DNA of 64,000 bases from Clostridia bacterium (GTDB lineage: Bacteria > Bacillota > Clostridia > RGIG6154). Positions 6,158-39,140 of this stretch are shown here, one piece after another. Position 1 is the first letter of the stretch. Every line of letters starts with the position of its first letter. A program made the position numbers and the translations under genes. Location: positions 181,390 through 245,389 of the forward strand of contig JAFQRW010000008.1 in the NCBI GenBank assembly GCA_017409875.1, given 5' to 3'. The notes under the pieces were generated by a model, which made no database searches, was not told where the DNA came from, and saw only the letters and a program-made list of their open reading frames with translations.

Positions 6158-6171
6158 AATAGAGGACACGA

Positions 6172-21508: not shown

Positions 21509-21513
21509 AAATA

Positions 21514-21545
21514 AGCCACCTTTTAAGGTGGCTTTGATTTTTTAT
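21514..21545. terminator. bidirectional rho-independent terminator
   Basis: AGCCACCTT-ttaa-AAGGTGGCT then TTGATTTTTTA. Lies between convergent genes. Confidence 0.75.
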
Positions 21546-22150
21546 TATGCATCATACACTTCGAAAGAAGTATCGGTGTAATTTTCTTTGATACTATAGT
21601 AAAAATTAGCTTTTGTCGCTTCCATATACGGGAACACATAGATTCCTGCAATGCCGAAAGTAACGGAAACCAAAAGTCCCCAGCCTATGAAGGAAAGGTA
21701 GAGTATAAACAAATCTGCTTTGTGCCCGTTCATCATTTTCTTGCTGGCGTTTAATGCTTCCATTGCGGTAAATGACTTGTTTTCAGCAAGGATATATGGT
21801 GCCATTGAATATGAAAGAGACGCAATAATTCCGGGAATTACAAAAAGCAAAGACCACAAAAAAGTAAACAGTGGAATTAAAATATATAAAAGTATTGCGT
21901 GAGCCAAAACGTCAAAATGATTAAAAAGCTCTAATAGTTTAGGTGGCTCGCCGTTTCTTAATTTTAAGAAAATGGTTATAAGACCAATATCAAGCGGTGC
22001 CGAAATAACAATAGTTGCAATAGCACCAATACTTGGGATTGCAGAAACCGCACTGCTTATAACTATACAAATAAGCATGCACACAAATAAAGCACCAATG
22101 TTTCCGCTTATTTGTTGCTTTGCCATCGCTTTAAGTTCGATTCTGTTCAT
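21545..22150 (-). CDS. DUF975 family membrane protein
   Basis: 201 aa. Typical DUF975 N-terminus with multiple TM helices. AAGGAG RBS. Confidence 0.6.
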   Translation of the reverse strand: MNRIELKAMAKQQISGNIGALFVCMLICIVISSAVSAIPSIGAIATIVISAPLDIGLITIFLKLRNGEPPKLLELFNHFDVLAHAILLYILIPLFTFLWSLLFVIPGIIASLSYSMAPYILAENKSFTAMEALNASKKMMNGHKADLFILYLSFIGWGLLVSVTFGIAGIYVFPYMEATKANFYYSIKENYTDTSFEVYDA

Positions 22151-25046: not shown

Positions 25047-25347
25047 ATTCCAACGTATAAAACAGTTAGATAAATTTCAATTTGTCGAGTTGTTTTATAA
25101 AACTTAATACAATAGTTTGCCGATTTTGATATTTACATATCGGGCAGGAAAACCTATTATTCCTGCGGGTTCTAAAGAATTTTGTTCAAAGAAAACAGTT
25201 GAAAAAATAGTAGGTCCTATTATTCACTGTTCACCCGACTTGACACGAACTTTTACTAAAATATAATAACACTTGAAATATGTGTAAAATAGTGATATAC
25301 TTAAATAAACAGGTATTAAAATATAATATGAAAGAAGACATAGATAA

Positions 25348-27639
25348 GTGGCAATAACATACGAACGAAAAAAACAAAATAATATTTTATATACAATTGT
25401 TGCTACACTTTTAATATGTGCAGTTTTTTTTGCGATGGTTGTATCTTTCTTTATTAAGGCTGAGGGCGATGCTTATGAAATGCTTCATATTCAGACAAAA
25501 CAGATTAAAGACGATCTTACCTTGCAGTTAAAATCAGACAGAGAAAACCTTATTACTATGGCAAACTTTGCGTCAAAGCTCTATGCTGACGGAAAAGGCT
25601 ATGAGCGTATGTTTGATTCCTTTAAGCCTATCGGTTTGTTTTCAAGAATTGGTATACTTAATCCGGACTGCACCTTTATCACAAAGGACGGAGTTTATGA
25701 TTTAAAAGGACAAATTTCATTTGAAGAACAAGCCCTTTTAGGAGAACATGTTACCGGTAGAACTTATAGCTATTCAATGCCCGATGAGCAGGTAGTCCGC
25801 AGCTCTGTTCCGATTCAGGTAAACGGAGAAACTGTTGGCATTATGTATGGTATTATCAATATCGAAACTATCAACGAAAAATACAATAATATGGCAAAAG
25901 AGCTTGATGCTCAGCTTTTTGTTTATGATAAGGAAACAGGAAAATTTATTATAGATACAATAAATGAAAAACCATCTGAACTGTCAAACTTGAAAGACAG
26001 GGAGTATAATGACGGCTATTCATACGAATTGATGGTAAATTCCGACAAAGGTTATTCTTCTTTTAAGTCAATACGTACAGGGGAGAATCTTTATATTCAT
26101 TATTCTATCATTGAAGATTTTAACTGGGGTATTATGCTTGCCCGTTATGAAACTCAGGTGTTTGAGGAAACTCATAGAATATCTCAAAACTTATTTGTTA
26201 TCTTTGGTGTAATCATCTTGATTATGGCAGTTTATCTTGAGTTGATATTAAAAAACGAAAAAAACAGAGCAAAATTAAATTCAGAGTCTTCTGCTATCAG
26301 GCATCTTCTTCTGGAAATAAACAGGCAACATGAAAATATAAATACCGCTTTAAGAAGAATAAAAGAATTTTCAAGTGCCCGTTCCTGCTTCTTTGCAGAT
26401 ACCGACGGAGAAGATTATTACTACATAAAGCCTTCCTTAAAGGATAAATGCTTGTTGGGTGACGAAAGAAAATACTTTATCAGTGAGCTTTTCAGGTATG
26501 CCGCAAACATTCATTCGGATAATTCATCTACCGGATTTATGCAGATTATTCCCAACAGTCACCTTTTAAAAACCAATCCGGAATTGTATCACTTTTTATT
26601 AAATCAAGGCATCAAAGATGTTTCTTTTGCGATTATTGCAGACAAAAACAACCATGTTAGTATCTTAGGTGCGATTAATCCCAAAAAAAGTTATGAAATC
26701 AGAAAACTCGCCAGCGATGTTGTTATTTGCTTTTCTATTGCCATATATAACAAAAAGCATCTTAACAAAACTGAGCTTGCTGCAACAACGGATTCTCTTA
26801 CCGGAGCCTTAAACCGTGTTGCATATAAAAAAGACATTCTCGTTTTTGACGAAGAAAAACCGGAAGATTTTTCCTGCATTTATATTGATGTTAACGAGCT
26901 TCATATCAGGAACAATAAATACGGACACGCCGCAGGCGATGAAATGCTTATCTATATTGCAAACTCCTTAAAGGAAGTGTTCTTTGGCCAGTACATTTAT
27001 CGTATGGGTGGCGATGAATTTTTAGTGTTTGCGAAAAAGATTCCACAAGAAATTATTAAACAGAGCATAGAAACCTTTGTTCAGCAAATAAAAACAAAGG
27101 ACTACAACGTTGCTATTGGTATATCTCACAGAACTCGAAATACAAACAGTGAAGAAATGGTTCGTGAAGCTGAAATCAGAATGTATGAGGCAAAGGCTCA
27201 GTATTATCAGGAAAAAGAAATGAAAAACACCTCGCATATTGATGACAAAGGTTATGTTCATACAAAGACAGGCATACTCGAAATTGATACGATGATTTCT
27301 ATTCTGAAAGAAAATTATAATGGAATATATCGTGTAGACTTAGATACAGACAAAGCACATCGTATTTTGATGCCTGCATACCTTGGTTATAATGAAAATG
27401 AGGAACATTTTTCTAAGCTTTTGATTAAGTATATAGATGATTCTGTTGCACCTGAATTTCACAGAGCAACTATGAACTTTTTGAACTATGATGCTCTTAA
27501 AAGACAACTTTTGGAAGGTAATACTCCCAGAATTACATATAAAAAGACTAACGGAGAAACTGTAATCCTTAGTATTTATAGGTTAAGCAATGAAGAAAAT
27601 TCTGTAAATAATACGCTTTGGGTTTTTGCAAAAGATTAA
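25348..27639 (+). CDS. membrane sensor diguanylate cyclase (periplasmic Cache-like domain, GGDEF domain with intact GGDEF motif, C-terminal extra domain)
   Basis: 763 aa, two TM helices flanking a periplasmic domain of about 250 aa. GGDEF domain has TGALNR ... YRMGGDEFLVFA. GTG start. Confidence 0.8.
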   Translation: MAITYERKKQNNILYTIVATLLICAVFFAMVVSFFIKAEGDAYEMLHIQTKQIKDDLTLQLKSDRENLITMANFASKLYADGKGYERMFDSFKPIGLFSRIGILNPDCTFITKDGVYDLKGQISFEEQALLGEHVTGRTYSYSMPDEQVVRSSVPIQVNGETVGIMYGIINIETINEKYNNMAKELDAQLFVYDKETGKFIIDTINEKPSELSNLKDREYNDGYSYELMVNSDKGYSSFKSIRTGENLYIHYSIIEDFNWGIMLARYETQVFEETHRISQNLFVIFGVIILIMAVYLELILKNEKNRAKLNSESSAIRHLLLEINRQHENINTALRRIKEFSSARSCFFADTDGEDYYYIKPSLKDKCLLGDERKYFISELFRYAANIHSDNSSTGFMQIIPNSHLLKTNPELYHFLLNQGIKDVSFAIIADKNNHVSILGAINPKKSYEIRKLASDVVICFSIAIYNKKHLNKTELAATTDSLTGALNRVAYKKDILVFDEEKPEDFSCIYIDVNELHIRNNKYGHAAGDEMLIYIANSLKEVFFGQYIYRMGGDEFLVFAKKIPQEIIKQSIETFVQQIKTKDYNVAIGISHRTRNTNSEEMVREAEIRMYEAKAQYYQEKEMKNTSHIDDKGYVHTKTGILEIDTMISILKENYNGIYRVDLDTDKAHRILMPAYLGYNENEEHFSKLLIKYIDDSVAPEFHRATMNFLNYDALKRQLLEGNTPRITYKKTNGETVILSIYRLSNEENSVNNTLWVFAKD

Positions 27640-27645
27640 AATTTG

Positions 27646-27674
27646 TTGACAAAGACGGTTCATTGTGTTAAAAT
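27646..27674 (+). promoter_or_regulatory. sigma-70-type promoter driving the riboswitch-led operon
   Basis: TTGACA (27646-51), 17-nt spacer, TAAAAT (27669-74). Confidence 0.55.
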
Positions 27675-27689
27675 TAATAACAAATGAAT

Positions 27690-27806
27690 ATTTAGCAAAA
27701 TCGGCGAAAGCCGGTGACGCAAAGCAAAGAGGCTAAAGCTTATGCCACGCCAGTCCAGCTGCAATGATAAGAGTCTTTCATGGCTTTCTATTGTTGCAGT
27801 TTTTTG
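27690..27806 (+). promoter_or_regulatory. candidate c-di-GMP-I (GEMM) riboswitch with terminator expression platform
   Basis: AGCAAAAUCGGC-GAAA-GCCGGUGACGCAAAGC reproduces the GEMM-I core: GCAAA, a P2 hairpin with GNRA tetraloop, then the near-invariant GACGCAAAGC. A second hairpin region follows (GCUUAU ... AUAAG). Its 3' arm overlaps an intrinsic terminator. Confidence 0.55.
27759..27806 (+). terminator. intrinsic terminator (riboswitch expression platform)
   Basis: CUGCAAUGAUA ... UAUUGUUGCAG stem of 11 bp (two G-U pairs) followed by UUUUUUG. Confidence 0.6.
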
Positions 27807-27822
27807 TTTATAGGAGAATTGT

Positions 27823-28515
27823 ATGAATGTAGTTACAAGAGAAGAAAAGAAATTTTTAATAAGTCTTGAAGAATTTCGGAATAAGTCACATTACCTTGAT
27901 AATCTGCTCATTCAGGATGAACATAACGGCATTGATGGATATATAATTAGGTCGCTCTATTTTGACACAGTTTACGATGATGATTTTTTTGAAAAACTTG
28001 AAGGTACAGAAACAAGGCGGAAGATACGCCTTAGAATTTATGACCCAAAACACGATTTTGCAATGCTGGAAATGAAGCAAAAACAGGGTGCGGCACAGAA
28101 AAAACGTTCACTTAGAATGACGAAAGCCGATGCCGAGGATTTAATCAAAGGCAAATATGAAGTTTTACTGAAATATGAAGAAGATTTTGCAAAAGAGTGC
28201 TACGGACTTATGCATTATAAATGCTACCGACCGAAAACGATTGTTCAGTATAACAGAAAGGCATACATAGCAAAGGAAAATAAAATAAGAATTACCTTTG
28301 ACAATAATATCGTGGCAACAGAAACCAATTTTGATTTGTTTTGCGAAAACCTTGTTATGTATCCTGTTTTAGACAAATTCAATGTTGTTTTAGAAGTGAA
28401 ATTTAACGGATTTTTGCTTGATTATATCAGGCAGTTTATAAACAGCATCAATAAAAGCGAGCTTTCGGTAAGCAAATACGCCTTAGCGAGACAGCAAAGT
28501 TATGCGGAGGTTTAA
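27823..28515 (+). CDS. VTC domain-containing protein (polyphosphate polymerase-like / CYTH-like fold)
   Basis: 230 aa. The pattern YIIRSLYFDT ... RRKIRLRIYD ... LEMK is typical of the bacterial VTC domain that co-occurs with DUF4956 and CotH. Confidence 0.65.
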   Translation: MNVVTREEKKFLISLEEFRNKSHYLDNLLIQDEHNGIDGYIIRSLYFDTVYDDDFFEKLEGTETRRKIRLRIYDPKHDFAMLEMKQKQGAAQKKRSLRMTKADAEDLIKGKYEVLLKYEEDFAKECYGLMHYKCYRPKTIVQYNRKAYIAKENKIRITFDNNIVATETNFDLFCENLVMYPVLDKFNVVLEVKFNGFLLDYIRQFINSINKSELSVSKYALARQQSYAEV

Positions 28516-28521
28516 TAAATT

Positions 28522-30276
28522 ATGAAAAAATGTTTTTGTTTATTGCACACTTTGATAATGCTTGCAACAGCTTTTAGTGTCAGCGCAACTTCTCAAGGCA
28601 GAGCGATTTGGCAGGATCCGGAAAACGTTGTAGTTATCTGTGGCGAAGAAGATGCGGAGCACCAATTCTTCAGAGCCGATACTATAGACGGAGAATATGA
28701 ATATATTGGAAAATCATCTACAGGCACATTTCGTGATGACACGGCAAGCTATCCCGGTACATATTTTTATAAAATAAAAAAATATGATGCATCAGGTGAA
28801 AAAACTTACGAATCAGGTCCGATAAAGCCAGATATTTATCCGCAAGCGCTTTCAAAGGTCAGTGTGATAATGTATCATAATTTTGTGAGCGAGGAAGATG
28901 TTAAGGCGGGAGTGGAATTTGATGAGTATTCCATTAAACCGGAGGATTTTGAGGAAGATTTGCTCTGGCTTAAAAACAATGGATATGTAACAATAACCTC
29001 AGACGATTTGTTAAGGCATCTTGAAGGGAAAAAATCACTGCCGCAAAAGGCGGTTATAATTTCTATAGATGACGGCTCGTGGGGAGTATATACAAATGCA
29101 TATCCGCTTTTGAAAAAATATAATATGAAAGCTGATTTTAACATAATCGGTGCAAATATTGATAAAGCCTGGGAAAACTTAGATTCGGGAGGAACAAGAA
29201 GCGGTGAAAGTGCTCCGTATTGCACATGGGAAGAGCTTGCCCAAATGTTAGATAGCGGAAAAATCAATATATGTTCACATACATACGGACTTCATGTTTA
29301 TGATAAAGAAAAACGAATCGGAATGAGTATGATGGAAGGCGAGACTCCAGAAGATTTTGCAGATATTGTAAAAAAGGATTACAACCTTTCCGTTAGTTGT
29401 ATAGAAGGCTGGACGGGTAAAAAGCCGGAAACAGTAGCTTATCCATATTCAAAAAGAAGTGCCGAGAGCGACAAGCTCGTTCTTGAAAATACAGGATATA
29501 AGATTCTTATGGCAGGAGAAGGCGCAAGAGGTACTGCTGCAAATTATTTTGTTAAAGACTGCCACATCACAAACCAGCTTATGCTTTTAAGCAGACCTTG
29601 TAGAATGGAAGGAACTCCGATTGGAACCTATCTTGAAAGAATAGATAAAAAAGATGGTCAGAACGGAATAAACAAAAGTATAGATTTCATCAAGGTGCAA
29701 AATACCGATGAGATTGCATCGGATTATCAAATATTTGATGATGTTAAAACAAACGCATGGTTTTCGGGAAGTGTGTATTATTCGTATTTAAATAGTTTGA
29801 TGAAAGGCGTAGGCAACAAAGAGTTTGCTCCTGACGATTATATAAACAGAGCGATGGCTGCAACGCTACTTAACAGACTTTCAGGAAATGATGATGCTAA
29901 AACAAATATCATGTTTGGTGATGCAGAAGGCACAGAATGGTGGTATAATTCGGCAAAATGGGCAGCAGAAAACGGAATACTTAATGTCTTTGATGATAAA
30001 AGCTTTAAGCCTGAACAACCAATCAGCAGAGAAAACCTTGCACGGGCAATGTATAATTGCGGAAGGTATTTAAAACTTGATATGTCTGAAAAGGCAGATA
30101 TTACTAAATTTACCGATTATGCAAATATAACTCAGAAAAATAAAGATGCAGTTGCCTGGGCAGTAGCAAAGGGTATTTTTAAAGGTAACGCCGATGGAAC
30201 TTTTAATCCGTCTGGTAATGTAACAAGAGCGGAAATGTCTATGGTACTCAGAAATTGGCTCAGTAAAGGAGAGTAA
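28522..30276 (+). CDS. secreted polysaccharide deacetylase (NodB homology domain) with three C-terminal SLH domains
   Basis: Signal peptide. Deacetylase motifs (ISIDDGSWGVY, CSHTYGLH). C-terminal SLH repeats (e.g. FKGNADGTFNPSGNVTRAEMSMVL). Confidence 0.75.
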   Translation: MKKCFCLLHTLIMLATAFSVSATSQGRAIWQDPENVVVICGEEDAEHQFFRADTIDGEYEYIGKSSTGTFRDDTASYPGTYFYKIKKYDASGEKTYESGPIKPDIYPQALSKVSVIMYHNFVSEEDVKAGVEFDEYSIKPEDFEEDLLWLKNNGYVTITSDDLLRHLEGKKSLPQKAVIISIDDGSWGVYTNAYPLLKKYNMKADFNIIGANIDKAWENLDSGGTRSGESAPYCTWEELAQMLDSGKINICSHTYGLHVYDKEKRIGMSMMEGETPEDFADIVKKDYNLSVSCIEGWTGKKPETVAYPYSKRSAESDKLVLENTGYKILMAGEGARGTAANYFVKDCHITNQLMLLSRPCRMEGTPIGTYLERIDKKDGQNGINKSIDFIKVQNTDEIASDYQIFDDVKTNAWFSGSVYYSYLNSLMKGVGNKEFAPDDYINRAMAATLLNRLSGNDDAKTNIMFGDAEGTEWWYNSAKWAAENGILNVFDDKSFKPEQPISRENLARAMYNCGRYLKLDMSEKADITKFTDYANITQKNKDAVAWAVAKGIFKGNADGTFNPSGNVTRAEMSMVLRNWLSKGE

Positions 30277-30278
30277 AA

Positions 30279-30959
30279 ATGAGAAGTCAGATTTTTAATT
30301 TAATTAAAGACCAGTCAACACTTACGTGGGAGCAGATTGTTGCAAATATTATCGTTTCGGGAATTTTAGGATTATTGATTTTCATATCCTATATGATTTC
30401 ACACCGTGGAACGATTTACAGTAAAAAGTTTAATGTTTCACTCGTTGTGCTTACGGTTCTTACCTCAATGGTTATGACGGTTATTGGCAACAATGTTGCA
30501 CTGTCGCTTGGTATGGTAGGTGCACTTTCTATTGTTCGTTTCAGAACGGCCATTAAAGATTCAAGGGACACGGTTTACATATTCTGGACAATAATTGTAG
30601 GTATCTGCTGCGGTGTTGGTGACTTTATTGTTGCAGGTATTGGAAGCGGTTTTGTATTTATTCTTCTCCTCATCTTTGGAGCAATTAAAAATAACAATCG
30701 TATGCTTGTGATTATCCGGGGAGAAAGAACAAAGGAAGCACAGATTCAGGCAGTGATGTATAAATTTTTTGGTGCAAAAGCGGTTTTAAGAGTTAAAAAC
30801 TCAACAGATACATCTATTGAATTTATCTATGAAATTACACAGAAATTGCTTTTGCAGGCGGAAAGAAAAAACAATATTGCAATCAATGACGAAATTTATA
30901 AAATCGGCAATATTGACTACGTAAACGCAGTAATGCAAAACGATGAAATTTCCAACTGA
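30279..30959 (+). CDS. DUF4956 domain-containing membrane protein
   Basis: 226 aa. TM helices then SIVRFRTAIKDSRDTVYIFW, characteristic of DUF4956, the usual partner of VTC-domain proteins. Confidence 0.65.
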   Translation: MRSQIFNLIKDQSTLTWEQIVANIIVSGILGLLIFISYMISHRGTIYSKKFNVSLVVLTVLTSMVMTVIGNNVALSLGMVGALSIVRFRTAIKDSRDTVYIFWTIIVGICCGVGDFIVAGIGSGFVFILLLIFGAIKNNNRMLVIIRGERTKEAQIQAVMYKFFGAKAVLRVKNSTDTSIEFIYEITQKLLLQAERKNNIAINDEIYKIGNIDYVNAVMQNDEISN

Positions 30960-30978
30960 TTTTTAGGAGGTGTAAGGG

Positions 30979-32460
30979 TTGAAATATAAGTTAATAGGAT
31001 TATTATCAGTAGCCCTTACGCTGATTGCAATAATCTTTATAAGCCGGTCTATGCCTGAAGATAATGGCACAAGATACATAGAACATATTATGGCAGAAGA
31101 AAAAGAGGCTTGCAAGTTACACGAAAATGATACCATTTGCACGCATCTGCCTATTGTAAATATAAATACAAACGGGACAGAAATTCCCGGAAAACCTATA
31201 TATGACGAAGAGTTTAGAGTTATAGATTATACTTTGGCAACAGATGGCACAACTACAATAAAAGCATCTTTAGATGTGATAAACAATGAAAAAGCGTATA
31301 ATCATCTGACCGACCCGAAAACAGATATGGGCGAGGTAATGATAAGGGTAAGAGGCCATTCGTCAAGAAGATTTGAAAAGGCAAATTATTTTATTCGCTT
31401 TATAGATTCTGCAGGAGAAAATAACCTGCAGGAGTTTTTGGGAATGGATGCACACCACGAATGGGCGCTTCACGGGCCGTTCCTTGATAAAACGCTTATC
31501 CGTAATTATATGTGGTATAACATAGCAGGAGAAATGATGGAATACAGCCCCAATGTTAGATTTTGCGAGCTTCTTATTAACGGAGAATACAGAGGCCTTT
31601 ATCTTGCAACGGAGATGATTACAGCTGGGAAAGAAGGCGCAAGACTATCTCTTTCTGTAAACAAAAAAGATAACACTTTTTCGGGTTATGCTCTTCGCCT
31701 TGACTGGGGAGACACCGATGAGGCAAACAAGCTCTATCCTTTTACAAATTATACAACAAGAGCAAAAACACAACACGAGCTTGTATATCCCGGAACAAAA
31801 AATATGACACCGGAATTAAAAGAAGCTATAAAGAATGAGTTTTCATTATTTGAAAAAACGCTTTATTCTTATGACTACAACAATGAAAAATACGGATACA
31901 AAAATTATATAGATACCGATTCATTTGTAGATTATTTTCTGATAAACGAGTTGACTTGTAATTACGATGCAGGCTCACTTTCAACTTATATCTATAAAGA
32001 CACTCCGGGCAAATATAAAATGTGTGTGTGGGACTTTAACTCAGCCTGCGATTTGTATCAGGAAAGTGCTGTTGTCACAGAATCTTTTAATTTAAATTCC
32101 AGATTGTATTTTCAAATGCTTTTTATGGATGATGAATTTACCGACAAGGTAGTAAATAGATATCACGAACTTAGAAAAACTGTTTTCAGTGAAGAGTATT
32201 TAATGAACTTTATTGATGATACTGTAGAGTATTTAAAGCCTGCTATCAAAAGAAATTACGATAAATGGGGTTATACGTTTAGCCCAGAATATGACCTTTT
32301 GCATCCTTCCGGAAGAAACTTAAGGACATACGAAGAGTATTTGATGCAACTAAAAGATTTTATCAAAAAAAGGCTTGCATTTATGGACGAAAATATCGAG
32401 TCACTTAAACAAAACAGTACAGAATCAAAAACTAAAAAATATAATGAAGTTTCAGATTAA
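30979..32460 (+). CDS. cotH: CotH kinase family protein (spore coat protein H-like atypical protein kinase)
   Basis: 493 aa. N-terminal TM or signal anchor. CotH-family core (e.g. MIRVRGHSSRRFEKANYFIRF, WDFNSACD). TTG start after AGGAGG. Confidence 0.7.
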   Translation: MKYKLIGLLSVALTLIAIIFISRSMPEDNGTRYIEHIMAEEKEACKLHENDTICTHLPIVNINTNGTEIPGKPIYDEEFRVIDYTLATDGTTTIKASLDVINNEKAYNHLTDPKTDMGEVMIRVRGHSSRRFEKANYFIRFIDSAGENNLQEFLGMDAHHEWALHGPFLDKTLIRNYMWYNIAGEMMEYSPNVRFCELLINGEYRGLYLATEMITAGKEGARLSLSVNKKDNTFSGYALRLDWGDTDEANKLYPFTNYTTRAKTQHELVYPGTKNMTPELKEAIKNEFSLFEKTLYSYDYNNEKYGYKNYIDTDSFVDYFLINELTCNYDAGSLSTYIYKDTPGKYKMCVWDFNSACDLYQESAVVTESFNLNSRLYFQMLFMDDEFTDKVVNRYHELRKTVFSEEYLMNFIDDTVEYLKPAIKRNYDKWGYTFSPEYDLLHPSGRNLRTYEEYLMQLKDFIKKRLAFMDENIESLKQNSTESKTKKYNEVSD

Positions 32461-32480
32461 ATGAAAAGGAGGTACAGGTT

Positions 32481-34655
32481 TTGAAAAAGTTTATTATTAT
32501 AATATCGCTGATTATACTTGTACTTCTTGGTTTTGATTGGCTTTACTTTTACGAGGGCGTGTATTTTAATTCCGGAAAAGAAAAGCCTATAGAATATTTT
32601 ACGAAGGTGGACGGCGAAGAAATTTATATAAAAAAGGATGATTCCTTTGAATCTTATGAGATTCGAGGCGTCAATTTAGGTTCAGGGATTCCCGGTGAGT
32701 GGGCAACATCTTTTGCAATAGATGAAGAGACTTATCTGAGATGGTTTAAATATATTCAGGATATGGGTGCAAATACCATTCGCATTTACACCATTCAAAA
32801 CGACACTTTCTATAATGCCTTTTATCAATACAACAAAGATAACGAAAATCCGCTTTATCTTATCCACGGCGTATGGGTGAATGACTATGTTTTGAACTCT
32901 CACAGAGATGCATACAGTAAGGATTTTTATGATTTGTTTTTAGAACACAGCAAAGTAATGGTTGATGTTATTCATGGCAAAAGGAAATTGAATCTTGGCA
33001 GAGTTGCCAGCGCCGGTCACGGTACATACCAAAATGACATATCCGATTGGGTTATAGGCTATATTTTAGGTGTTGAGTGGGACGATTCAACCGTTGCTTA
33101 CACAGATGATTTGTATAAGGGAATAGAGGGTTATTCATCCTACAAAGGCGAGTATATGTATACATCCCCTGATGCCACTCCATTTGAAACGATGCTTACA
33201 ATGGTAGGGGACAAGGTTATTGAGTATGAAACAAAGCGCTATGGCGAGCAGAGGCTTGTTGCATTTTCAAACTGGCCCACAACAGACCCGTTTGAGTATC
33301 CGCAAATTATCAAGGAGTTCTTTATGAAATGTGCCCGTGTAGATACGGAGCATATTAAGACAACTGATGCGTTTATTCCCGGTCAGTTTGCTTCATACCA
33401 TGTTTATCCTTACTATCCTTATTATTTAAGCTTTGCAGAGGACTGGTCTGTATTTGGCATTGAGTCAAAGGATACTTTCCGTAATGAAGAGGGAAATGTC
33501 AATGCATACCGTGCATATCTTACAATGCTCAATAACCACCATACAATGCCTGTTGTAATATCCGAATTTGGTGTATCTACCGGAAGAGGCATGGCACAAG
33601 TCGATAAAGACACCGGCAGAAATCAGGGTAACACATCAGAACAAAAGCAAGGTCAGGCTCTTGTTGAGTGTTGGGAAGATATTAAAATCACAGGTTGTAA
33701 CGGCGGATGCGTGTTTACCTGGCAGGACGAATGGTTTAAGCGCACATGGAACACAATGCACGCAGTAAATCTTACAAGAACTGCTTATTGGTCTGACTAT
33801 CAGACAAACGAGCAGTATTTCGGGCTTTTGTCATTTGACCCCGGAAACGAAAAGAGCGTTTGCTATGTGGATGGCGATGTTTCAGAGTGGACTGATAGTG
33901 ATATAATTCAAAGCGGGAACACCGAACTTTCGGTTAAATATGACGAAAAGTTTATATATTTTCTTGTAAAAAAAGACGGGCTTGATTTTGAAAATGAGGT
34001 TTTATATATTCCTGTTGATGTAACCGAAAAAACAGGCAGTAATTACTGCAAAAACTTTGATGTGAAATTTGCAAGAGATGCGGATTTTGTTATTGTTTTA
34101 AACGGAAAAGATAACAGCCGTATTATGGTGCAGGAACGCTATGATGCCCTTCGTTCAACCTATTCGAAGGATATTCATAAATTCGATACATATCTTAAAG
34201 AGAATGTTCCCGATAAAAATTCTTCTTTATTTGTAAATGTTGAATTGATACTTCGTACCGCAATCGCACTTTCGCCCGAAACTAAGGAGACGGTTGCAGA
34301 GGCTTACGAAACAGGAAAACTTTTGTACGGTAATGCAAATCCCGAGAGCAGAGATTTTAATTCTCTTGCGGATTTTTGCGTGGGCGGGGATTATATTGAA
34401 ATCAAACTCCCTTGGCAGCTTTTAAACTTTGCAGACCCGTCTAAAATGCTTGTTCACGATGACTATTATGACGGAAATTACGGAATTGAATATATAAGCG
34501 TTGATAAGATATATGCAGGCGTTGGTACTGGAAATGACAGAATTTCACTTGATGAAATTAAACTTAAAGGCTGGGGTAACAAGGTAACCTATCACGAAAG
34601 ATTAAAAAGTTCATATTATATAATGCAGAATTTATGGAAGGAGGGCGCAGAATAA
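32481..34655 (+). CDS. hypothetical membrane-anchored protein, putative TIM-barrel glycoside hydrolase-like (clan GH-A-like)
   Basis: 724 aa. N-terminal TM. IRGVNLGSGIPGEWATSF...ANTIRIY resembles the start of a (beta/alpha)8 glycosidase. VVISEFGV resembles a GH-A nucleophile motif. C-terminal beta-rich region of about 300 aa. Confidence 0.4.
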   Translation: MKKFIIIISLIILVLLGFDWLYFYEGVYFNSGKEKPIEYFTKVDGEEIYIKKDDSFESYEIRGVNLGSGIPGEWATSFAIDEETYLRWFKYIQDMGANTIRIYTIQNDTFYNAFYQYNKDNENPLYLIHGVWVNDYVLNSHRDAYSKDFYDLFLEHSKVMVDVIHGKRKLNLGRVASAGHGTYQNDISDWVIGYILGVEWDDSTVAYTDDLYKGIEGYSSYKGEYMYTSPDATPFETMLTMVGDKVIEYETKRYGEQRLVAFSNWPTTDPFEYPQIIKEFFMKCARVDTEHIKTTDAFIPGQFASYHVYPYYPYYLSFAEDWSVFGIESKDTFRNEEGNVNAYRAYLTMLNNHHTMPVVISEFGVSTGRGMAQVDKDTGRNQGNTSEQKQGQALVECWEDIKITGCNGGCVFTWQDEWFKRTWNTMHAVNLTRTAYWSDYQTNEQYFGLLSFDPGNEKSVCYVDGDVSEWTDSDIIQSGNTELSVKYDEKFIYFLVKKDGLDFENEVLYIPVDVTEKTGSNYCKNFDVKFARDADFVIVLNGKDNSRIMVQERYDALRSTYSKDIHKFDTYLKENVPDKNSSLFVNVELILRTAIALSPETKETVAEAYETGKLLYGNANPESRDFNSLADFCVGGDYIEIKLPWQLLNFADPSKMLVHDDYYDGNYGIEYISVDKIYAGVGTGNDRISLDEIKLKGWGNKVTYHERLKSSYYIMQNLWKEGAE

Positions 34656-35761
34656 TGAAAATAGAAATTATGATTTATACTTATATTGCAATTTGCGTAA
34701 GTATGATTTTGTATAATATAATCTATATTTTCGTTTTAAAGCACAGACAGCGCGCCCTTGTTATTGATTCCGAAAAATTAAAGAAAATATTAACTGAACA
34801 AATAGACATACTCAAAAAAGGCGAAGAGATATCCGAAAAGCATAAAAAGTTTCTTTGCCGTGAACTTGATAAAACTGCGGGAATTACCGCTTTTGACAAA
34901 GCACTTGAAGTAGTGTTTGATAAAGAGGAAGAATTTACCGAAAAATACCTTGTGGATACTTTCTCTGTTTTTGAAATTCTCACTCATAGATACATAACCA
35001 AGGATACACTTAAAATTGCATACTTCCCATACATACTGCACAAGTACAATATTTTAAAACATCACGAAGGCGAAAGGCTTACATCAGCACTTTTTGACAT
35101 TTTGCGTTCTGTAAATGTATATTGCAGAGAAAACACGCTAAAAGCACTTTACAGTATGCAAAAACCTGATATTGTTGGGAGAGCACTTAAAGTTATCGAT
35201 ACAAATCTTTCATTTCATCATCCCAAGCTCATAAGTGATGGTCTTATGTTTTATAAGGGTGACAGGGAGGAGCTTAAAAACACACTTTTTAGATACTTTA
35301 AAGATTACTCTGTGCAGATGCGGGTTGATATCTTAAATTACTTCAGATTTGCAGGCGTAAGATGTGATGATGAAATGCTGGAGTTATTAAAAAACGAGAA
35401 GGAAAACAATGAAATCAGGTTTTCTGCTATTCGTTATTTTGAAAAATTTCCATTAAGCGATGCAGAACCTGTCATATTAAATTTAGCAGAGAATCTGGAA
35501 AATCGCACATGGGAATATCAGGCGATTGCAACCTCGGCACTAAAATCCTATCCGGGGGATACGACATTTAGAATTTTAGTAAAAAATCTTTCCAGCTCAA
35601 ACTGGCATATAAGACAAAACAGTGCCATTTCCTGCGAAAAGCTTGGTTATACATATCAGGACTTAATAAATGTGTTTGACGGAAATGACAGATATGCAAG
35701 AGAGATTATCAGGTATCGTCTTGACAGAAGAAATGCAGAGGAAGAGGCGGTGAAAGCATAA
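34655..35761 (+). CDS. HEAT-repeat (PBS lyase-like) membrane-anchored protein, hypothetical
   Basis: ATG at 34655 overlaps the upstream stop (TAATG). N-terminal TM. Repeated alpha-helical HEAT-like units (e.g. NWHIRQNSAISCEKLG). Confidence 0.45.
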   Translation: MKIEIMIYTYIAICVSMILYNIIYIFVLKHRQRALVIDSEKLKKILTEQIDILKKGEEISEKHKKFLCRELDKTAGITAFDKALEVVFDKEEEFTEKYLVDTFSVFEILTHRYITKDTLKIAYFPYILHKYNILKHHEGERLTSALFDILRSVNVYCRENTLKALYSMQKPDIVGRALKVIDTNLSFHHPKLISDGLMFYKGDREELKNTLFRYFKDYSVQMRVDILNYFRFAGVRCDDEMLELLKNEKENNEIRFSAIRYFEKFPLSDAEPVILNLAENLENRTWEYQAIATSALKSYPGDTTFRILVKNLSSSNWHIRQNSAISCEKLGYTYQDLINVFDGNDRYAREIIRYRLDRRNAEEEAVKA

Positions 35762-37164
35762 TGCAGATGGAATTAATTAAGCAAATTTTTGATGTTATCG
35801 GCGTTTGCTTCATCGTTTATTTAATTGGCTACTCCACATTTTTGTTTTTATCGGTGGTGGTTGGTGCAACCACTCTTTATAAAAGAAAAATGCAGGACAG
35901 ACTTATGAATAAGTTTGCCGAGAACTATTTTGTGCCAATAACAATAGTTACCCCTGCTTACAATGAAGAAGTTACCGTTGTGCAGACTGTAAAGTCGCTT
36001 TTAACCCTTGATTACAAGCTTTATGAAATTATTGTGGTGGATGACGGCTCAAAGGATAGCACATCACAGCAGTTAATTGATGCTTATAATATGCATCCTG
36101 TAAGAAGACCTCTTCACAGGTCTATTGACTGCCAGCCTGTAGAATTTATATATGAATCCCACGAACAAAAAGTACCGCTTACACTCATCCGTAAGAAAAA
36201 CGGCGGGAAAGCAGATGCACTTAATATGGGTATCAATGCTGCACAATATCCGTATTTTATATGTATGGATGCCGACTCGGTTTTGCAGTACGACTCACTA
36301 AAAAAACTGGTTGTACCTGTTTTGGAAGAAGAAAATGTGGTTGCAGTCGGCGGAACGGTAAGACCGTCTAACGATGTGGAACTTTATGAGGGCAGGGTTG
36401 TAAAATACAGACTCCCTAAAAACATATTGGCTTGTATGCAGCTTTTAGAATATGACCGCTCATTTTTAGCATCAAGAATACTGTTTGACAGATTCAACGG
36501 CTCTTTAATTATCTCAGGAGCATTTGGAATGTTCAAAAAAGAAACAGTTATTGCAGCGGGCGGATATGACCATGGCACAATGGGCGAGGATATGGAGCTT
36601 GTGGTAAAACTTCATTCCTACTGTCTTACAAATAAAATTCCTTATTCCATCAAATACGCAACCGATGCGGTTTGTTGGACGCAGGTGCCCGAAAAGCTCG
36701 GCGACCTTAAAAAACAAAGAAAACGTTGGCATTTGGGACTTTTTCAGACAATGTGGAAGCATAAAAAGATGATGGCTAATCCAAAATACGGAGCAGTTGG
36801 CTTTGTATCATATATGTATTTTCTTTTATATGAATTGCTTTCACCCTTTATTGAAGTTTTCGGAGTGTTTACAATGATTGCAGCATACCTAATTGACCTT
36901 TTGAACTTGCCGTTTATGCTACTATTTATGCTGATTTATGCTTCATATAACTCTATACTCACTTTGACGGCGTTCTTTTCAAGAATACAGACAATTGACT
37001 TAACGGTAAAACCAAGTGATTGTCTTAGAGCAATAATGCTTTGCTTTTTTGAGGTTACTACACTTAGGTTTATTATGGCGTTTGTTCGACTTACAGCATT
37101 TAAAGGGTACAAAAAGAAAAAGCTTGATTGGGGACGAATTGAGCGAAAGAAAATGAATATTTAA
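35761..37164 (+). CDS. processive membrane glycosyltransferase family 2 synthase (cellulose synthase / PgaC / YdaM-like)
   Basis: 467 aa. N-terminal TM. GT2 domain (VTPAYNEEVTVV...VVDDGSKDST, DAD). QxxRW motif (QRKRW). Four C-terminal TM helices. Confidence 0.8.
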   Translation: MQMELIKQIFDVIGVCFIVYLIGYSTFLFLSVVVGATTLYKRKMQDRLMNKFAENYFVPITIVTPAYNEEVTVVQTVKSLLTLDYKLYEIIVVDDGSKDSTSQQLIDAYNMHPVRRPLHRSIDCQPVEFIYESHEQKVPLTLIRKKNGGKADALNMGINAAQYPYFICMDADSVLQYDSLKKLVVPVLEEENVVAVGGTVRPSNDVELYEGRVVKYRLPKNILACMQLLEYDRSFLASRILFDRFNGSLIISGAFGMFKKETVIAAGGYDHGTMGEDMELVVKLHSYCLTNKIPYSIKYATDAVCWTQVPEKLGDLKKQRKRWHLGLFQTMWKHKKMMANPKYGAVGFVSYMYFLLYELLSPFIEVFGVFTMIAAYLIDLLNLPFMLLFMLIYASYNSILTLTAFFSRIQTIDLTVKPSDCLRAIMLCFFEVTTLRFIMAFVRLTAFKGYKKKKLDWGRIERKKMNI

Positions 37165-37182
37165 GGAGGCTCTGCAAGAAAA

Positions 37183-39063
37183 ATGAAAAAGTTTATATTG
37201 CTCTTACTAGCAGTGTTTGCATTTTTTGTGCAGCCAGTTTTTGCAGAGGTTATAACTACACACAGTACAGAGGGTTATGCAAGTTACCTTTATGTTGCAG
37301 GAAATCCGGATAATTACCCAATAGAATATTACGATGAAGATGAAAAAGCATATAAGGGTGTTATACCCGATTTGCTAAGTAAAATTTCTGAACATTCAGG
37401 ACTTGATTTTGTCTATATTAACGGAAATAAAAACGAAAGATATGAGATGGGCGAAAATCTTCAGGCGGATATCATTTCATCACTAGAGACAAATACTTCC
37501 TACGGCAAGGAGTATCTCGAACTGATTTCTTATGAAAATTACGGAAAAACCCAAAAAACAGGTCTTGTTTTTACAACACTTGCAGATGATAATATAATTA
37601 CCAAGATTAAAACTGCCTTAAACGAAATATCCCTTGATGAAAGAAATGGTATATACCTGTCCTATGCATCACAAACCTCAAAAACAAGCTATAAATGGAT
37701 AATAGGCACACTTTTGTTGTCCTTCATCCTTCTTGCTTTTGTTGTGTTTTTGTTTTTACATATCAAAAGAATGCGAAAAGAAAACGAAGTTGACAAAATG
37801 ACAGATGCAGAAACAGGAATGGGAAATCTGCAGTTTTTCAAATATCATTTCAGGCACACTATAGGGGACATTTCCAGAAATCTGTACCACATTGCATATA
37901 TTATCTTAGACAGTAGTTACCTCCGTTCCTATCATGGCGACAGTTCATTTGATGAGGTTTTAAAATACACAGCATCTGTTCTGTCAGAACACGCAGGTGA
38001 CAGAGAAATACCTGCGCGAATTACCGAAAACGGATTTGCCCTTGCGTATCAGTCTACAAATGACGAAGATGCAAAAAATAGACTCAAAGAAATTATGGAT
38101 AAACTTAACAGCTTTGAGGGCGTGAAGGATAAAAGCAACAAGCTTGTTTTCCACGCAGCAACCTATCATCTTGCACAGACAGACAGAAACTGTGAAATTT
38201 TGCTATTTAATCTGAGAAAGAACTGTAACGCTATTTTTGGAACCGATAACCAGATTATGTATTGTGACACCCATTCTATGAATTTGGTTCAGGAGGAAAA
38301 GAAAATTACAGAAAGCATTTTAAAGGGCTTTGAAAACAATGAATTTAAGATGTATATGCAGTTTATTGTTGATAACAAAACAAAAAACATTGTGTCAGCA
38401 GAAGCACTTTCAAGATGGGACAGTCATGAAAAAGGACTGATAGGTCCGGGTAAATATATAAAAAATATGGAAAATTCAGGGATGATTTCAAGACACGATT
38501 TTTATATGTTTGAGTGTGCTTGCCGCCAGCTTGAAAAATGGAAGGATACGAAATACGGCCACATCACGATTTCCTGCAACTTTACAAGAATAACTCTTTC
38601 TGAGGAAAACTTTATAGATAAGCTCAAGATGATTTCCGACGGATACAATTTTGATAAATCAAAAATAGCCATAGAAATTACTGAGGATGCTATCGAAAAG
38701 GACAGAGAAACTGCAACAAATAATGTTAGACTTTGTAAGGAGCTCGGCTTTAAAATTTACCTTGATGACTTGGGAAGTGGTTATACATCCCTTGCAAATT
38801 TATGTGATTATCCTATTGATGTAGTTAAGATTGACCGTGATATTCTGCTTAAAACCGAGTCAGAAAATGGCAAAAAATTATTTGCCGGAATCATAGCTCT
38901 TGCTCATAATATGGACATAAAAGTTATTTGCGAAGGCGTTGAAACAGAAATGCACAACGCACTTGTGTCGGAATCTGATTGCGATTTCGTTCAAGGATGG
39001 TATTACTCAAAAACACTTCCGTTGGAAGAATGTGAGTCGTTTATATCATCAAAATCTATTTAA
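37183..39063 (+). CDS. membrane c-di-GMP phosphodiesterase (periplasmic domain, TM, degenerate GGDEF, EAL)
   Basis: 626 aa. Signal peptide and TM at about aa 165-190. GGDEF-like domain lacking the GGDEF motif. EAL domain with EALSRW, DDLGSGYTS and EGVE motifs. Confidence 0.75.
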   Translation: MKKFILLLLAVFAFFVQPVFAEVITTHSTEGYASYLYVAGNPDNYPIEYYDEDEKAYKGVIPDLLSKISEHSGLDFVYINGNKNERYEMGENLQADIISSLETNTSYGKEYLELISYENYGKTQKTGLVFTTLADDNIITKIKTALNEISLDERNGIYLSYASQTSKTSYKWIIGTLLLSFILLAFVVFLFLHIKRMRKENEVDKMTDAETGMGNLQFFKYHFRHTIGDISRNLYHIAYIILDSSYLRSYHGDSSFDEVLKYTASVLSEHAGDREIPARITENGFALAYQSTNDEDAKNRLKEIMDKLNSFEGVKDKSNKLVFHAATYHLAQTDRNCEILLFNLRKNCNAIFGTDNQIMYCDTHSMNLVQEEKKITESILKGFENNEFKMYMQFIVDNKTKNIVSAEALSRWDSHEKGLIGPGKYIKNMENSGMISRHDFYMFECACRQLEKWKDTKYGHITISCNFTRITLSEENFIDKLKMISDGYNFDKSKIAIEITEDAIEKDRETATNNVRLCKELGFKIYLDDLGSGYTSLANLCDYPIDVVKIDRDILLKTESENGKKLFAGIIALAHNMDIKVICEGVETEMHNALVSESDCDFVQGWYYSKTLPLEECESFISSKSI

Positions 39064-39096
39064 CTTGCAGTTAAAAATTGTACTTATAAGAAAAAG

Positions 39097-39140
39097 GCAA
39101 TGAGCATAACCCGTGTGGGTTACGCTCATTGCTTTTTTGT
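39097..39140 (+). terminator. strong rho-independent terminator ending the operon
   Basis: GCAATGAGCATAACCC-gtgt-GGGTTACGCTCATTGC then TTTTTTG. Confidence 0.85.

Follow-up and report, generated by a model that had tools for sequence, protein, structure and literature searches.

A conserved gene block bracketed by c-di-GMP enzymes

We analyzed a 64-kb stretch of DNA from an uncultured Clostridia bacterium (64,000 nucleotides of contig JAFQRW010000008.1; referred to here as the window, with positions counted from its first letter) that contains a putative exopolysaccharide operon under the control of cyclic dimeric GMP (c-di-GMP). Eight genes follow one another on the forward strand from 27823 to 39063, with intergenic distances of 6, 2, 19, 20, −22, −1, and 18 nt, and encode in this order a VTC protein, a polysaccharide deacetylase with SLH repeats, a DUF4956 membrane protein, a CotH kinase-fold protein, a 724-amino-acid (aa) protein that we call T, a HEAT-repeat protein, a processive GT2 synthase, and a sensor phosphodiesterase with an EAL domain. 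The gene of a membrane sensor diguanylate cyclase lies immediately upstream of the block, and a riboswitch aptamer occupies the leader of the VTC gene. By consensus match, a sigma-70-type promoter is predicted on the forward strand at 27646-27674 (TTGACA-17-TAAAAT with an extended TG; 11 of 12 consensus positions), and the block is closed by a forward-strand intrinsic terminator at 39097-39138, consisting of a hairpin (39097-39132) with a stem of 15 to 16 bp and a folding energy of −30.2 kcal/mol followed by U6. The locus had been singled out in an earlier annotation made from the letters alone (the original prediction). Our nine open reading frames (ORFs) have exactly the coordinates of that annotation, the tight packing of the eight genes (distances from −22 to 20 nt) and the strong terminator at 39097 that it described are in place, and its domain calls for VTC, SLH/deacetylase, DUF4956, CotH, GT2, and GGDEF/EAL were all recovered in a Pfam scan.

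The original prediction had proposed conservation of the gene order as a check, and we ran this comparison with T as the seed. T belongs to a large, unnamed family (1,598 clusters at 50% identity). Relatives were sought in one genome per GTDB species, and at least 585 were confirmed. All locus counts given here rest on the best 80 loci of these at least 585 relatives, in which T identity ranges from 52 to 90%; every ORF of the 80 loci was compared by BLAST with the nine proteins of the window. The loci span Oscillospiraceae, Ruminococcaceae, Lachnospiraceae, and other families and include the isolates Zongyangia hominis and Diplocloster hominis, and the nearest species-level relatives of the window locus, among the matches listed, are Ructibacterium and Congzhengia metagenome-assembled genomes (MAGs). 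Our data revealed an operon that does not vary in its core order and is found very widely among gut Clostridia. The order VTC-DUF4956-CotH-T-HEAT-GT2 is not violated once in the 80 species-level loci, and all six core genes are present in 63 of them, the remaining loci being cut by contig ends. The signaling genes recur as well: an EAL gene lies 3′ of the GT2 gene in 51 of the 58 loci with enough downstream sequence, and in 24 of 53 the gene immediately before VTC encodes a GGDEF protein. Where both flanks are available (41 loci), at least one c-di-GMP element is found in 39, and the EAL gene is present in every one of the 25 loci that also carry the riboswitch.

Among the functions suggested in the original prediction, a c-di-GMP-gated extracellular polymer is the one that best explains this locus, with its riboswitch in front, its GGDEF gene upstream, and its EAL gene in last position. 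We consider it probable that these genes form an exopolysaccharide operon of the synthase-dependent kind that is induced by c-di-GMP. The evidence is set out below, beginning with the proteins that would make the polymer.

The synthase and its proposed partner proteins

The synthase gene (35761-37164, forward strand) encodes a processive GT2 enzyme that is nearest to PgaC/IcaA (TIGR03937, 149.4 bits). The protein carries the motifs DDGS94, DAD170, GED275, and QRKRW319 together with N- and C-terminal transmembrane (TM) helices, and these motifs are invariant in 67 orthologs. The D, DxD, and GED motifs and QRKRW319 are those expected of the processive QxxRW synthase that had been called here. 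A close solved structure of the GT2 protein was not found.

The second gene of the block (28522-30276, forward strand) encodes a secreted CE4 deacetylase of the PgaB/IcaB-like type, with Pfam Polysacc_deac_1 and SLH matches, the latter as three repeats. The metal-site pattern consists of an Asp (SIDD181) and an H-x4-H element (HTYGLH), and the catalytic domain is nearest to the N-terminal domain of PgaB (TIGR03938) and to IcaB. The SLH-anchored, NodB-type deacetylase of the original prediction is therefore present in its domains, but it does not belong to the conserved operon core. Because the gene occurs in 12 of the 63 complete loci and at variable positions, it is an accessory gene; it occupies the VTC/DUF4956 gap, the DUF4956/CotH gap, the place after GT2, or a place upstream, and the close relative L005 lacks it. 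The use of at least four slots, together with its absence from most loci, suggests repeated gain and loss of the gene. Very large ORFs related to the deacetylase lie upstream in L011 (1491 aa) and in L071 (1027 aa, on the opposite strand).

T (32481-34655, forward strand) was expected to be a TIM-barrel hydrolase-like protein, and structure prediction agrees with this expectation. An AlphaFold model computed from a 71-sequence alignment (predicted local distance difference test score, 93.6; predicted template-modeling score, 0.92) contains a (β/α)8 barrel superposable on enzymes of clan GH-A, followed by C-terminal β-sandwich domains. T thus appears to be a membrane-anchored, extracytoplasmic glycanase- or transglycosylase-like protein, which gives an ∼700-aa hypothetical protein a predicted fold and a probable activity. 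Searches of T against Pfam and NCBIfam gave no family match, nor was a DUF4832 domain detected, and its identity to the structural matches (GH157/GH2/GH5/GH72-like) does not exceed 18%. In operon-linked orthologs, E199 (in GVEW) is kept in 77 of 78 and E362 (in SEFG) in all 78. Judging from the strand positions in the model, E199 is expected to be the acid/base residue after β-4 and E362 the nucleophile on β-7. The N-terminal anchor is present in 77 of the 78 orthologs, with a charge bias that predicts a catalytic domain outside the cell.

The gene that follows T encodes a HEAT-repeat protein with an N-terminal TM helix and a predicted cytoplasmic helical domain (34634-35761, forward strand; likely start, 34655). 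In Pfam the repeats stay below threshold. A profile built from the orthologs matches PBS-type HEAT/alphaRep proteins with an E value of 1e-25, which bears out the HEAT-repeat membrane protein of the original prediction, where a remote-homology check of this 375-aa product had been proposed; the structural matches of the profile are generic or designed HEAT repeats only. The start at 34634 has no ribosome-binding site (RBS). The ATG at 34655 stands behind an RBS, GGAAGGAGGG, overlaps the stop codon of T by 1 nt (TAATG), and yields a product of 368 aa that is in line with the orthologs. The −22-nt overlap between the two genes is probably an artifact of start codon choice, with 34655 as the true start, and the TAATG stop/start overlap behind GGAAGGAGGG suggests that T and the HEAT protein are translationally coupled.

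Positive charges in the HEAT protein (mean K+R, 0.8 before the TM helix and 3.9 after it) predict an N-out/C-in topology. Five members of the T family are fused at their C terminus to the HEAT protein (P0156, P0177, P0181, P0199, and P0216), and with the predicted topology such a fusion would be coherent, running from a TM helix through an extracytoplasmic glycanase and a second TM helix to a cytoplasmic HEAT domain. Another relative, P0123, joins T to a CE4 deacetylase with 34% identity to that of the window, in a two-domain arrangement like that of PgaB and PelA. From these observations we infer that T and the HEAT protein form a transmembrane partner unit of the synthase. Twelve other T relatives (P0147, P0204, P0214, P0219, P0222, P0227, P0236, P0237, P0243, P0248, P0259, and P0260) have an extra N-terminal region of ∼300 to 390 aa; none of the twelve regions resembles an operon protein, and a Pfam scan of four of them gave no match.

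Two further ORFs in the compared loci join proteins of this operon. One, at L051 in a Lachnospiraceae MAG, is 1109 aa long and encodes both the GT2 synthase and the EAL protein; it reflects either an assembly error or a natural fusion, which would imply that the two are physically coupled. The other, of 736 aa in L030, has a HEAT-like N-terminal part and an EAL-like C-terminal part, and GT2 was not detected at that locus.

What polymer might this machinery produce? The nearest known systems are those for poly-N-acetylglucosamine (PNAG), encoded by pgaABCD and icaADBC. The window shares with them the processive GT2 motifs with flanking TM helices, a CE4 enzyme that is nearest to PgaB/IcaB, and control by c-di-GMP as in pga, and some T-family members resemble PgaB in joining a glycoside hydrolase-like domain to a deacetylase. 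In contrast to the PNAG systems, the locus has no PgaD/IcaD, PgaA, or IcaC; the search for a PgaD/IcaD-type match among the nine window proteins was negative, and a TM-plus-HEAT protein of 368 to 375 aa stands at the partner position. It also differs in the added HEAT protein and phosphate-related genes, and c-di-GMP would act through a riboswitch and not, or not only, through allosteric binding to the synthase.

Several findings weigh against this reading of the locus. The 149.4 bits of the synthase are far below the TIGR03937 equivalog cutoff of 422.3. The deacetylase scores 130 bits against a TIGR03938 cutoff of 322 and 68 bits against an IcaB cutoff of 248, and only a minority of complete loci have its gene. 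Structurally, T is matched best by a β-1,3-glucanase, and the wider T family keeps E199 and E362 in only 40 and 27 of 71 members, respectively. On the basis of the structural match of T, the polymer could be a glucan. The corresponding alternative, which we regard as the less likely one while giving it real weight, is that the product is some other β-glycan, for example a β-1,3-glucan or a chitin-like chain, that T is a GH157/GH72-like remodeling glucanase or glucanosyltransferase, and that the deacetylase is a lineage-specific addition with a different substrate, for instance peptidoglycan or a secondary cell wall polymer. This alternative has to contend with the ranking of curated families for the synthase, in which PgaC/IcaA scores best (149 bits, versus 43 for NodC and 32 for CelA), with the specific PgaB/IcaB likeness of the deacetylase, and with the T-CE4 fusion of P0123, which uses a deacetylase of the same type. 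In addition, Pel, the polymer of the other loci in which the VTC/DUF4956/CotH genes are found (see below), is a partly deacetylated N-acetylhexosamine polymer. We therefore continue with a PNAG-like, N-acetylhexosamine-rich polymer as the preferred product.

The riboswitch leader and the c-di-GMP enzymes

The riboswitch that the original prediction had placed tentatively before the operon is a genuine c-di-GMP-I (GEMM-I) aptamer. The region 27684-27766 (forward strand) scores 57.7 bits with Rfam model RF01051 (gathering score, 35; E = 4e-9), over the full length of the model (positions 1 to 87 of 87), and is the sole Rfam match in the window. A covariance model built from six aptamers was then run against all loci. 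It found the aptamer in 44 loci, giving 45 aptamers with that of the window. Of the 65 loci with at least 250 nt of sequence 5′ of the VTC gene, 41 have the aptamer there, and its end is 34 to 112 nt 5′ of the VTC start codon in all aptamer-bearing loci but one. Covariation in the 45 aptamers is strong, with paired bases in 93.7% of cells and compensatory changes at 13 of the 19 pairs, values far above those of the shuffled or slid controls. Both hairpins and the GNRA tetraloop are maintained, and the GAAA loop is kept in every aptamer except that of L037. Every riboswitch-bearing form seen so far comes from a MAG, and the two cultured carriers gave no riboswitch match. A search for c-di-GMP-II and other riboswitches in seven loci without a class I aptamer found none, and a literature search on CotH operons and c-di-GMP riboswitches returned no paper linking the two.

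The upstream gene (25348-27639, forward strand) encodes the sensor diguanylate cyclase, a membrane protein of 763 aa whose GGDEF domain (72.9 bits) has the intact signature, GGDEF554, that the original prediction reported. Two TM segments surround a weak dCache-like domain (25.5 bits; cutoff, 45), and an RxxD I-site is absent. The GHAAGD motif, in which hybrid GGDEF enzymes making cyclic GMP-AMP (cGAMP) have a serine at one position, is canonical. A consensus promoter of its own is predicted for the cyclase gene at 25240-25267. The 763- to 767-aa architecture recurs in the closest loci (L005, L007, L008, L011, L016, L067, and L079), and residues ∼620 to 763 of the window protein form a C-terminal extension of ∼145 aa after the GGDEF domain that has no family match.

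At the other end of the block, the last gene (37183-39063, forward strand) encodes a sensor phosphodiesterase (EAL, PF00563, 192 bits) composed of a signal/TM segment, an extracytoplasmic SBP_bac_3-like domain, a TM helix, a degenerate GGDEF domain (ENGFA282), and the EAL domain. The catalytic and metal-binding set of the EAL domain is complete (E407, R411, N466, E498/E501, D528, K549, E584, and Q604) and conserved in 31 orthologs, and no RxxD is found five residues upstream of ENGFA. The degenerate GGDEF domain and the EAL motif set had both been read correctly in the original prediction, but the receptor role that it drew from the Bacillus ydaJKLMN logic does not hold, since a degenerate-GGDEF receptor of the YdaK/PelD type is ruled out by the missing I-site and the intact EAL set. 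For the same two reasons, the product is most likely an active, ligand-sensing phosphodiesterase.

Two features of the leader count against straightforward c-di-GMP control. The riboswitch is missing from about a third of the loci, and the aptamer of the window has an unusual base at 27694, just 5′ of the conserved GCAAA. This position, which by our own reading of the Vc2 sequence we take to be the equivalent of Vc2 G20, is G in 35 of the 45 aptamers and A in 10 (the window and 9 of the other 44); A-type aptamers are found mostly in the window's own clade, including several of its closest relatives. G20A variants bind c-di-GMP at 53 nM, compared to picomolar values for the parent type (about a thousand-fold weaker), and 3′3′-cGAMP at 120 nM, and natural clostridial A-variant aptamers are bispecific (PMC6140456). 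By analogy, the A at 27694 may both weaken and broaden ligand recognition. With a GGDEF enzyme at one end of the locus, an EAL enzyme at the other, and the canonical GHAAGD in the cyclase, c-di-GMP is the likely ligand of the window aptamer, perhaps with a higher activation threshold.

In which direction would such a switch work? The expression platform is an intrinsic terminator hairpin followed by a U-run (27757-27806, forward strand; −20.4 kcal/mol, z = −4.1), and an RBS (AGGAG) and the VTC start codon come directly 3′ of it. The terminator stem, AGCUGCAAUGAUAAGAGUC / GGCUUUCUAUUGUUGCAGUU, begins 10 nt inside the aptamer; ∼10 nt of its 5′ arm are held in common with the 3′ strand and tail of the aptamer. 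The stem includes the C immediately 3′ of the second aptamer hairpin (P3), a residue taken to be the equivalent of the ligand-pairing C92. All 45 leaders follow this plan of an aptamer and then a hairpin with a U-run, in which the 5′ arm reuses 7 to 25 nt of the aptamer 3′ end (median, 11), and in many leaders the terminator takes up the entire 3′ strand of the second hairpin, GACUGACCGCAC. In the pilM ON switch, the aptamer and terminator folds are mutually exclusive and the ligand-pairing C is sequestered by the terminator, whereas in the Cd1 OFF switch aptamer and terminator coexist (PMC9262584). Because the leader terminator and the aptamer are mutually exclusive here, as in pilM and unlike in Cd1, c-di-GMP would probably turn the operon on, given that the riboswitch functions. 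A terminator whose 5′ arm is the 3′ strand of the aptamer is also the design of the pilM-type ON switch (GEMM-Ib, Geobacter) and of the pbuE adenine ON switch. The window aptamer further resembles GEMM-Ib in the A at the G20-equivalent position, from which the 35 operon-linked aptamers that keep G differ.

The opposite logic, an OFF switch, would restrict production of the polymer and phosphate machinery to low c-di-GMP levels. The cotranscribed phosphodiesterase would then create positive feedback and bistability. We consider this logic improbable. Most characterized class I c-di-GMP riboswitches of Clostridioides difficile, including Cd1, are OFF switches, and a part of the window terminator stem, AUGAUAAGAGUC/GGCUUUCUAUUGU, could form with the aptamer still folded. 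However, an OFF switch requires that the two folds coexist, which they cannot do when all 45 terminator 5′ arms use aptamer nucleotides. Furthermore, no separate antiterminator is evident in the 34 to 64 nt that separate the aptamer from the start codon, and exopolysaccharide operons are generally induced by c-di-GMP. An ON switch remains our preferred reading of the leader.

Transfer RNA genes lie close to two of the loci. In L021, two tRNA genes (6582-6750) are found just upstream of the riboswitch, and in L057 (Zongyangia hominis), which has no riboswitch, a duplicated tRNA gene array (5840-6929) ends shortly upstream of the VTC gene.

The VTC/DUF4956/CotH trio, its relatives, and a proposed mechanism

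The VTC gene (27823-28515, forward strand) encodes a stand-alone, soluble protein of 230 aa with a triphosphate-tunnel fold like that of polyphosphate polymerases (Pfam VTC, 131 bits versus a threshold of 23). A profile of its orthologs aligns to the catalytic domain of yeast Vtc4 (3g3q; E = 0.0023), and the tunnel residues K10, R69, R71, E83, K85, K94, R95, R145, and R156 are invariant in 71 orthologs. The DUF4956 gene (30279-30959, forward strand; Pfam, 47.4 bits) encodes an MgtC-like membrane protein of 226 aa with three to four TM helices, a C-terminal soluble domain of ∼90 aa, and an extremely conserved motif, LSLGMVGALSIVRFRTAxKDxRD; no solved relative was found for it. As in the eukaryotic VTC complex, the basic tunnel residues are conserved and the VTC gene stands beside the gene of a dedicated multipass membrane protein, an arrangement that suggests coupled synthesis and translocation. 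Unlike the eukaryotic complex, the window has neither an SPX domain nor a DUF202 TM domain, and its membrane partner, DUF4956, is unrelated by sequence. No bacterial VTC protein is known to synthesize polyphosphate, and a literature search for a characterized bacterial VTC/DUF4956 system returned nothing.

The third member of the trio (30979-32460, forward strand) is a CotH kinase-fold protein of 493 aa that covers the PF08757 profile from position 1 to 322 of 322 (202.7 bits versus 23.8) and has an N-terminal hydrophobic membrane anchor in 76 of 76 orthologs. Its N-lobe aligns to Bacillus cereus CotH (5jd9). Two motifs at the expected distance of ∼22 residues, N328-Y-D330 and W351-D352, are invariant, and N354 is nearly so. 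D330 and D352 resemble the D228/D251 pair of Bacillus subtilis CotH and may correspond to it. Mutation of this catalytic pair abolishes activity in B. subtilis (PMC7821199). The conserved, putatively catalytic residues of the trio argue for real enzymatic activity. On the unfavorable side, the orientation of CotH in the membrane is ambiguous by charge bias (2.1 versus 1.8), and comparisons of the single sequence, the profile, and the catalytic segment with 5jd9 align only the N-lobe and leave the catalytic Asp residues unmapped.

The original prediction called this gene combination undescribed. That holds for its function but not for the gene set, which is known from two sources. The first is NELoc-2, a locus of Clostridium perfringens strains causing necrotic enteritis (Lepp 2010, PMC2879425; also Lacey 2018, PMC5964661), reported only as a strain-associated marker. 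Table 4 of the 2010 paper lists VTC (230 aa), “tubulin/FtsZ” (222 to 226 aa), CotH (497 aa), a hypothetical protein (685 aa), HEAT (377 aa), and a GT2 “chitin synthase” (466 aa) (PMC2879425). A distant T relative in our set, P0220 (E = 3e-114), groups with the C. perfringens protein WP_126963693.1, whose contig (L085) has the order VTC-DUF4956-CotH-685aa-HEAT-GT2. The six C. perfringens proteins are 42, 46, 35, 35, 28, and 44% identical to those of the window over full length (E values of 1e-19 to 1e-148), and the “tubulin/FtsZ” annotation is DUF4956. NELoc-2 and the window thus agree in the six core genes, their order, and their nearly equal protein lengths. They differ in that C. perfringens has no SLH-deacetylase and in that the locus of strain CP4 follows a sigma factor gene and has a duplicated VTC/DUF4956 pair around a resolvase; the window has single VTC and DUF4956 copies, with a GGDEF gene and the riboswitch, not a sigma factor gene, upstream. 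A further point that does not favor c-di-GMP control as a general property of this gene set is that no aptamer, EAL gene, or adjacent GGDEF gene was found at the C. perfringens locus. Because C. perfringens has the core without these elements while gut loci carry them, we conclude that the six-gene core is older than the signaling layer, which was added in gut lineages.

The second source is the Pel loci of Gram-positive bacteria. In streptococci and clostridia, cotH, a polyphosphate polymerase gene, DUF4956, and DUF4832 are contiguous with pelDEADAFG, and bifidobacterial Pel loci have a gene for a dual diguanylate cyclase/phosphodiesterase in place of DUF4832 (Whitfield 2020, PMC7112168). In Streptococcus intermedius, mutants lacking the DUF4956-like or the CotH-like gene make less Pel and aggregate less, and the protein that combines a TIM barrel with DUF4832 has hydrolase activity (Raya 2025, PMC12345266). 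The window has the same VTC, DUF4956/MgtC-like, and membrane-bound or secreted CotH proteins next to a membrane-anchored TIM-barrel hydrolase-like protein, and in both cases the trio directly adjoins the genes of a synthase-dependent polysaccharide system, a deacetylase gene among them. In contrast to the Pel loci, the synthase of the window is a GT2 enzyme with a HEAT partner and not PelF (GT4), PelG, PelD, and PelE; no Pel family was detected in the nine window proteins or their neighbors. The authors of the 2025 study stated that the three-gene synteny was not found outside Pel loci (PMC12345266). Contrary to that statement, the window operon and NELoc-2 both show the trio outside Pel loci, where it accompanies a PgaC/IcaA-like GT2 synthase. 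We regard the trio as a portable accessory module shared with the Pel loci of Gram-positive bacteria, and from the S. intermedius phenotypes it may be required in some way for polymer output. In an unrelated case, the sfz cluster of Zetaproteobacteria, a CotH-domain protein (Sfz6) occurs with a c-di-GMP-linked GT2 exopolymer cluster (PMC8250860), which hints at a wider association of CotH with exopolysaccharides.

These relatives bear on two further explanations, both of which we consider very unlikely. According to one, the trio is an independent unit of phosphate or polyphosphate homeostasis merely colocated with polysaccharide genes; VTC does relate to polyphosphate synthesis, DUF4956 is MgtC-like, and no trio member has a demonstrated biochemical link to polysaccharide, but in all 80 species and in C. 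perfringens the trio adjoins T-HEAT-GT2 without exception, it shares the riboswitch in front of the operon, and it is also linked to the unrelated Pel synthase, whose output is lowered in mutants of trio homologues. According to the other, to which the original prediction alluded in tying the block to sporulation, CotH is a spore coat kinase as in Bacillus and the GT2 enzyme builds a spore glycan; family membership of CotH and the many spore formers among the Clostridia hosts would fit, but this tie falls with the sigma-70-type promoter and c-di-GMP leader, the conserved N-terminal anchor of CotH, the lack of cotB- or cotG-like substrates or coat genes nearby, and the presence of the trio in nonsporulating streptococci and bifidobacteria, where it affects Pel-dependent aggregation (PMC7112168, PMC12345266).

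Returning to a c-di-GMP-induced exopolysaccharide operon, we propose a mechanism on the basis of the anatomy, co-conservation, folds, and conserved catalytic residues described above; the direction of the switch, the chemistry of the polymer, and every step given to the trio are our interpretation. The adjoining sensor cyclase would make c-di-GMP, and its place next door points to a local source of the signal. Binding of c-di-GMP to the leader aptamer would block the overlapping terminator and allow read-through into the operon. The PgaC/IcaA-like GT2 enzyme would then polymerize and export a β-linked polymer, probably rich in N-acetylhexosamine, working with the membrane-spanning unit of extracytoplasmic T and cytoplasmic HEAT protein, and T may trim or transglycosylate this polymer. 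In the lineage of the window, the SLH-anchored PgaB/IcaB-like enzyme would deacetylate the polymer at the cell wall. Finally, the EAL phosphodiesterase encoded by the last gene would degrade c-di-GMP and reset the signal; an ON switch with an active phosphodiesterase as the last gene would amount to a negative-feedback loop. For the trio, the preferred but unproven assignment is that VTC and DUF4956 act as a membrane-coupled polyphosphate synthase/translocase and that CotH phosphorylates the polymer or a surface protein.

A more specific version of the trio's role is tentative and, in our estimate, rather unlikely to be correct as it stands. VTC and DUF4956 might be a bacterial counterpart of the VTC complex that delivers polyphosphate to the cell surface for either of two purposes, and each of these purposes is put forward with the same reserve. 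Surface polyphosphate might serve as phosphoryl donor to CotH, acting as an ecto-kinase on the nascent polysaccharide or on wall proteins where ATP is not available; or it might be a polyanionic cross-linker of a partly deacetylated, cationic polysaccharide. Such a role would explain why the trio occurs with two unrelated synthases (Pel GT4 and GT2) in loci that include deacetylases. If true, it would mean a new biofilm matrix in gut Clostridia, streptococci, and bifidobacteria, phosphorylated or polyphosphate bearing and controlled by c-di-GMP.

Already known before this analysis were the gene set, as NELoc-2 and as Pel accessory genes, and c-di-GMP-controlled, synthase-dependent exopolysaccharide systems as such. 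New are the invariance and spread of the operon, the association of the trio with a GT2 synthase, the proposed circuit of ON riboswitch, phosphodiesterase, and cyclase, the predicted fold, putative catalytic residues, and fusions of T, and the subclade with G20A-type aptamers. Because the trio is locked in invariant order to a PgaC-like synthase and also stands beside Pel, it is synthase agnostic, and its role must concern something common to Pel and GT2 systems, which makes the question of the trio in Gram-positive biofilm biology more tractable. Cultured and genetically tractable carriers are supplied by C. perfringens, Zongyangia hominis, and Diplocloster hominis, and NELoc-2 gains a concrete candidate function in the synthesis of a matrix or adhesion polysaccharide. 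The cyclase, ON riboswitch, and cotranscribed phosphodiesterase would together make a compact natural circuit, in which the G20A-type aptamer of one subclade may broaden ligand specificity.

The genes around the block are unrelated housekeeping genes, encoding DUF975, histidine phosphatase, EamA, HXXEE, and serine dehydratase proteins and a monogalactosyldiacylglycerol synthase-like glycosyltransferase. A below-threshold match to the Phe_leader family at 21506-21622 on the reverse strand (29.6 bits versus a gathering score of 55; E = 0.28) is almost certainly due to chance; it overlaps the 3′ end of the DUF975 gene and contains a terminator-like hairpin.

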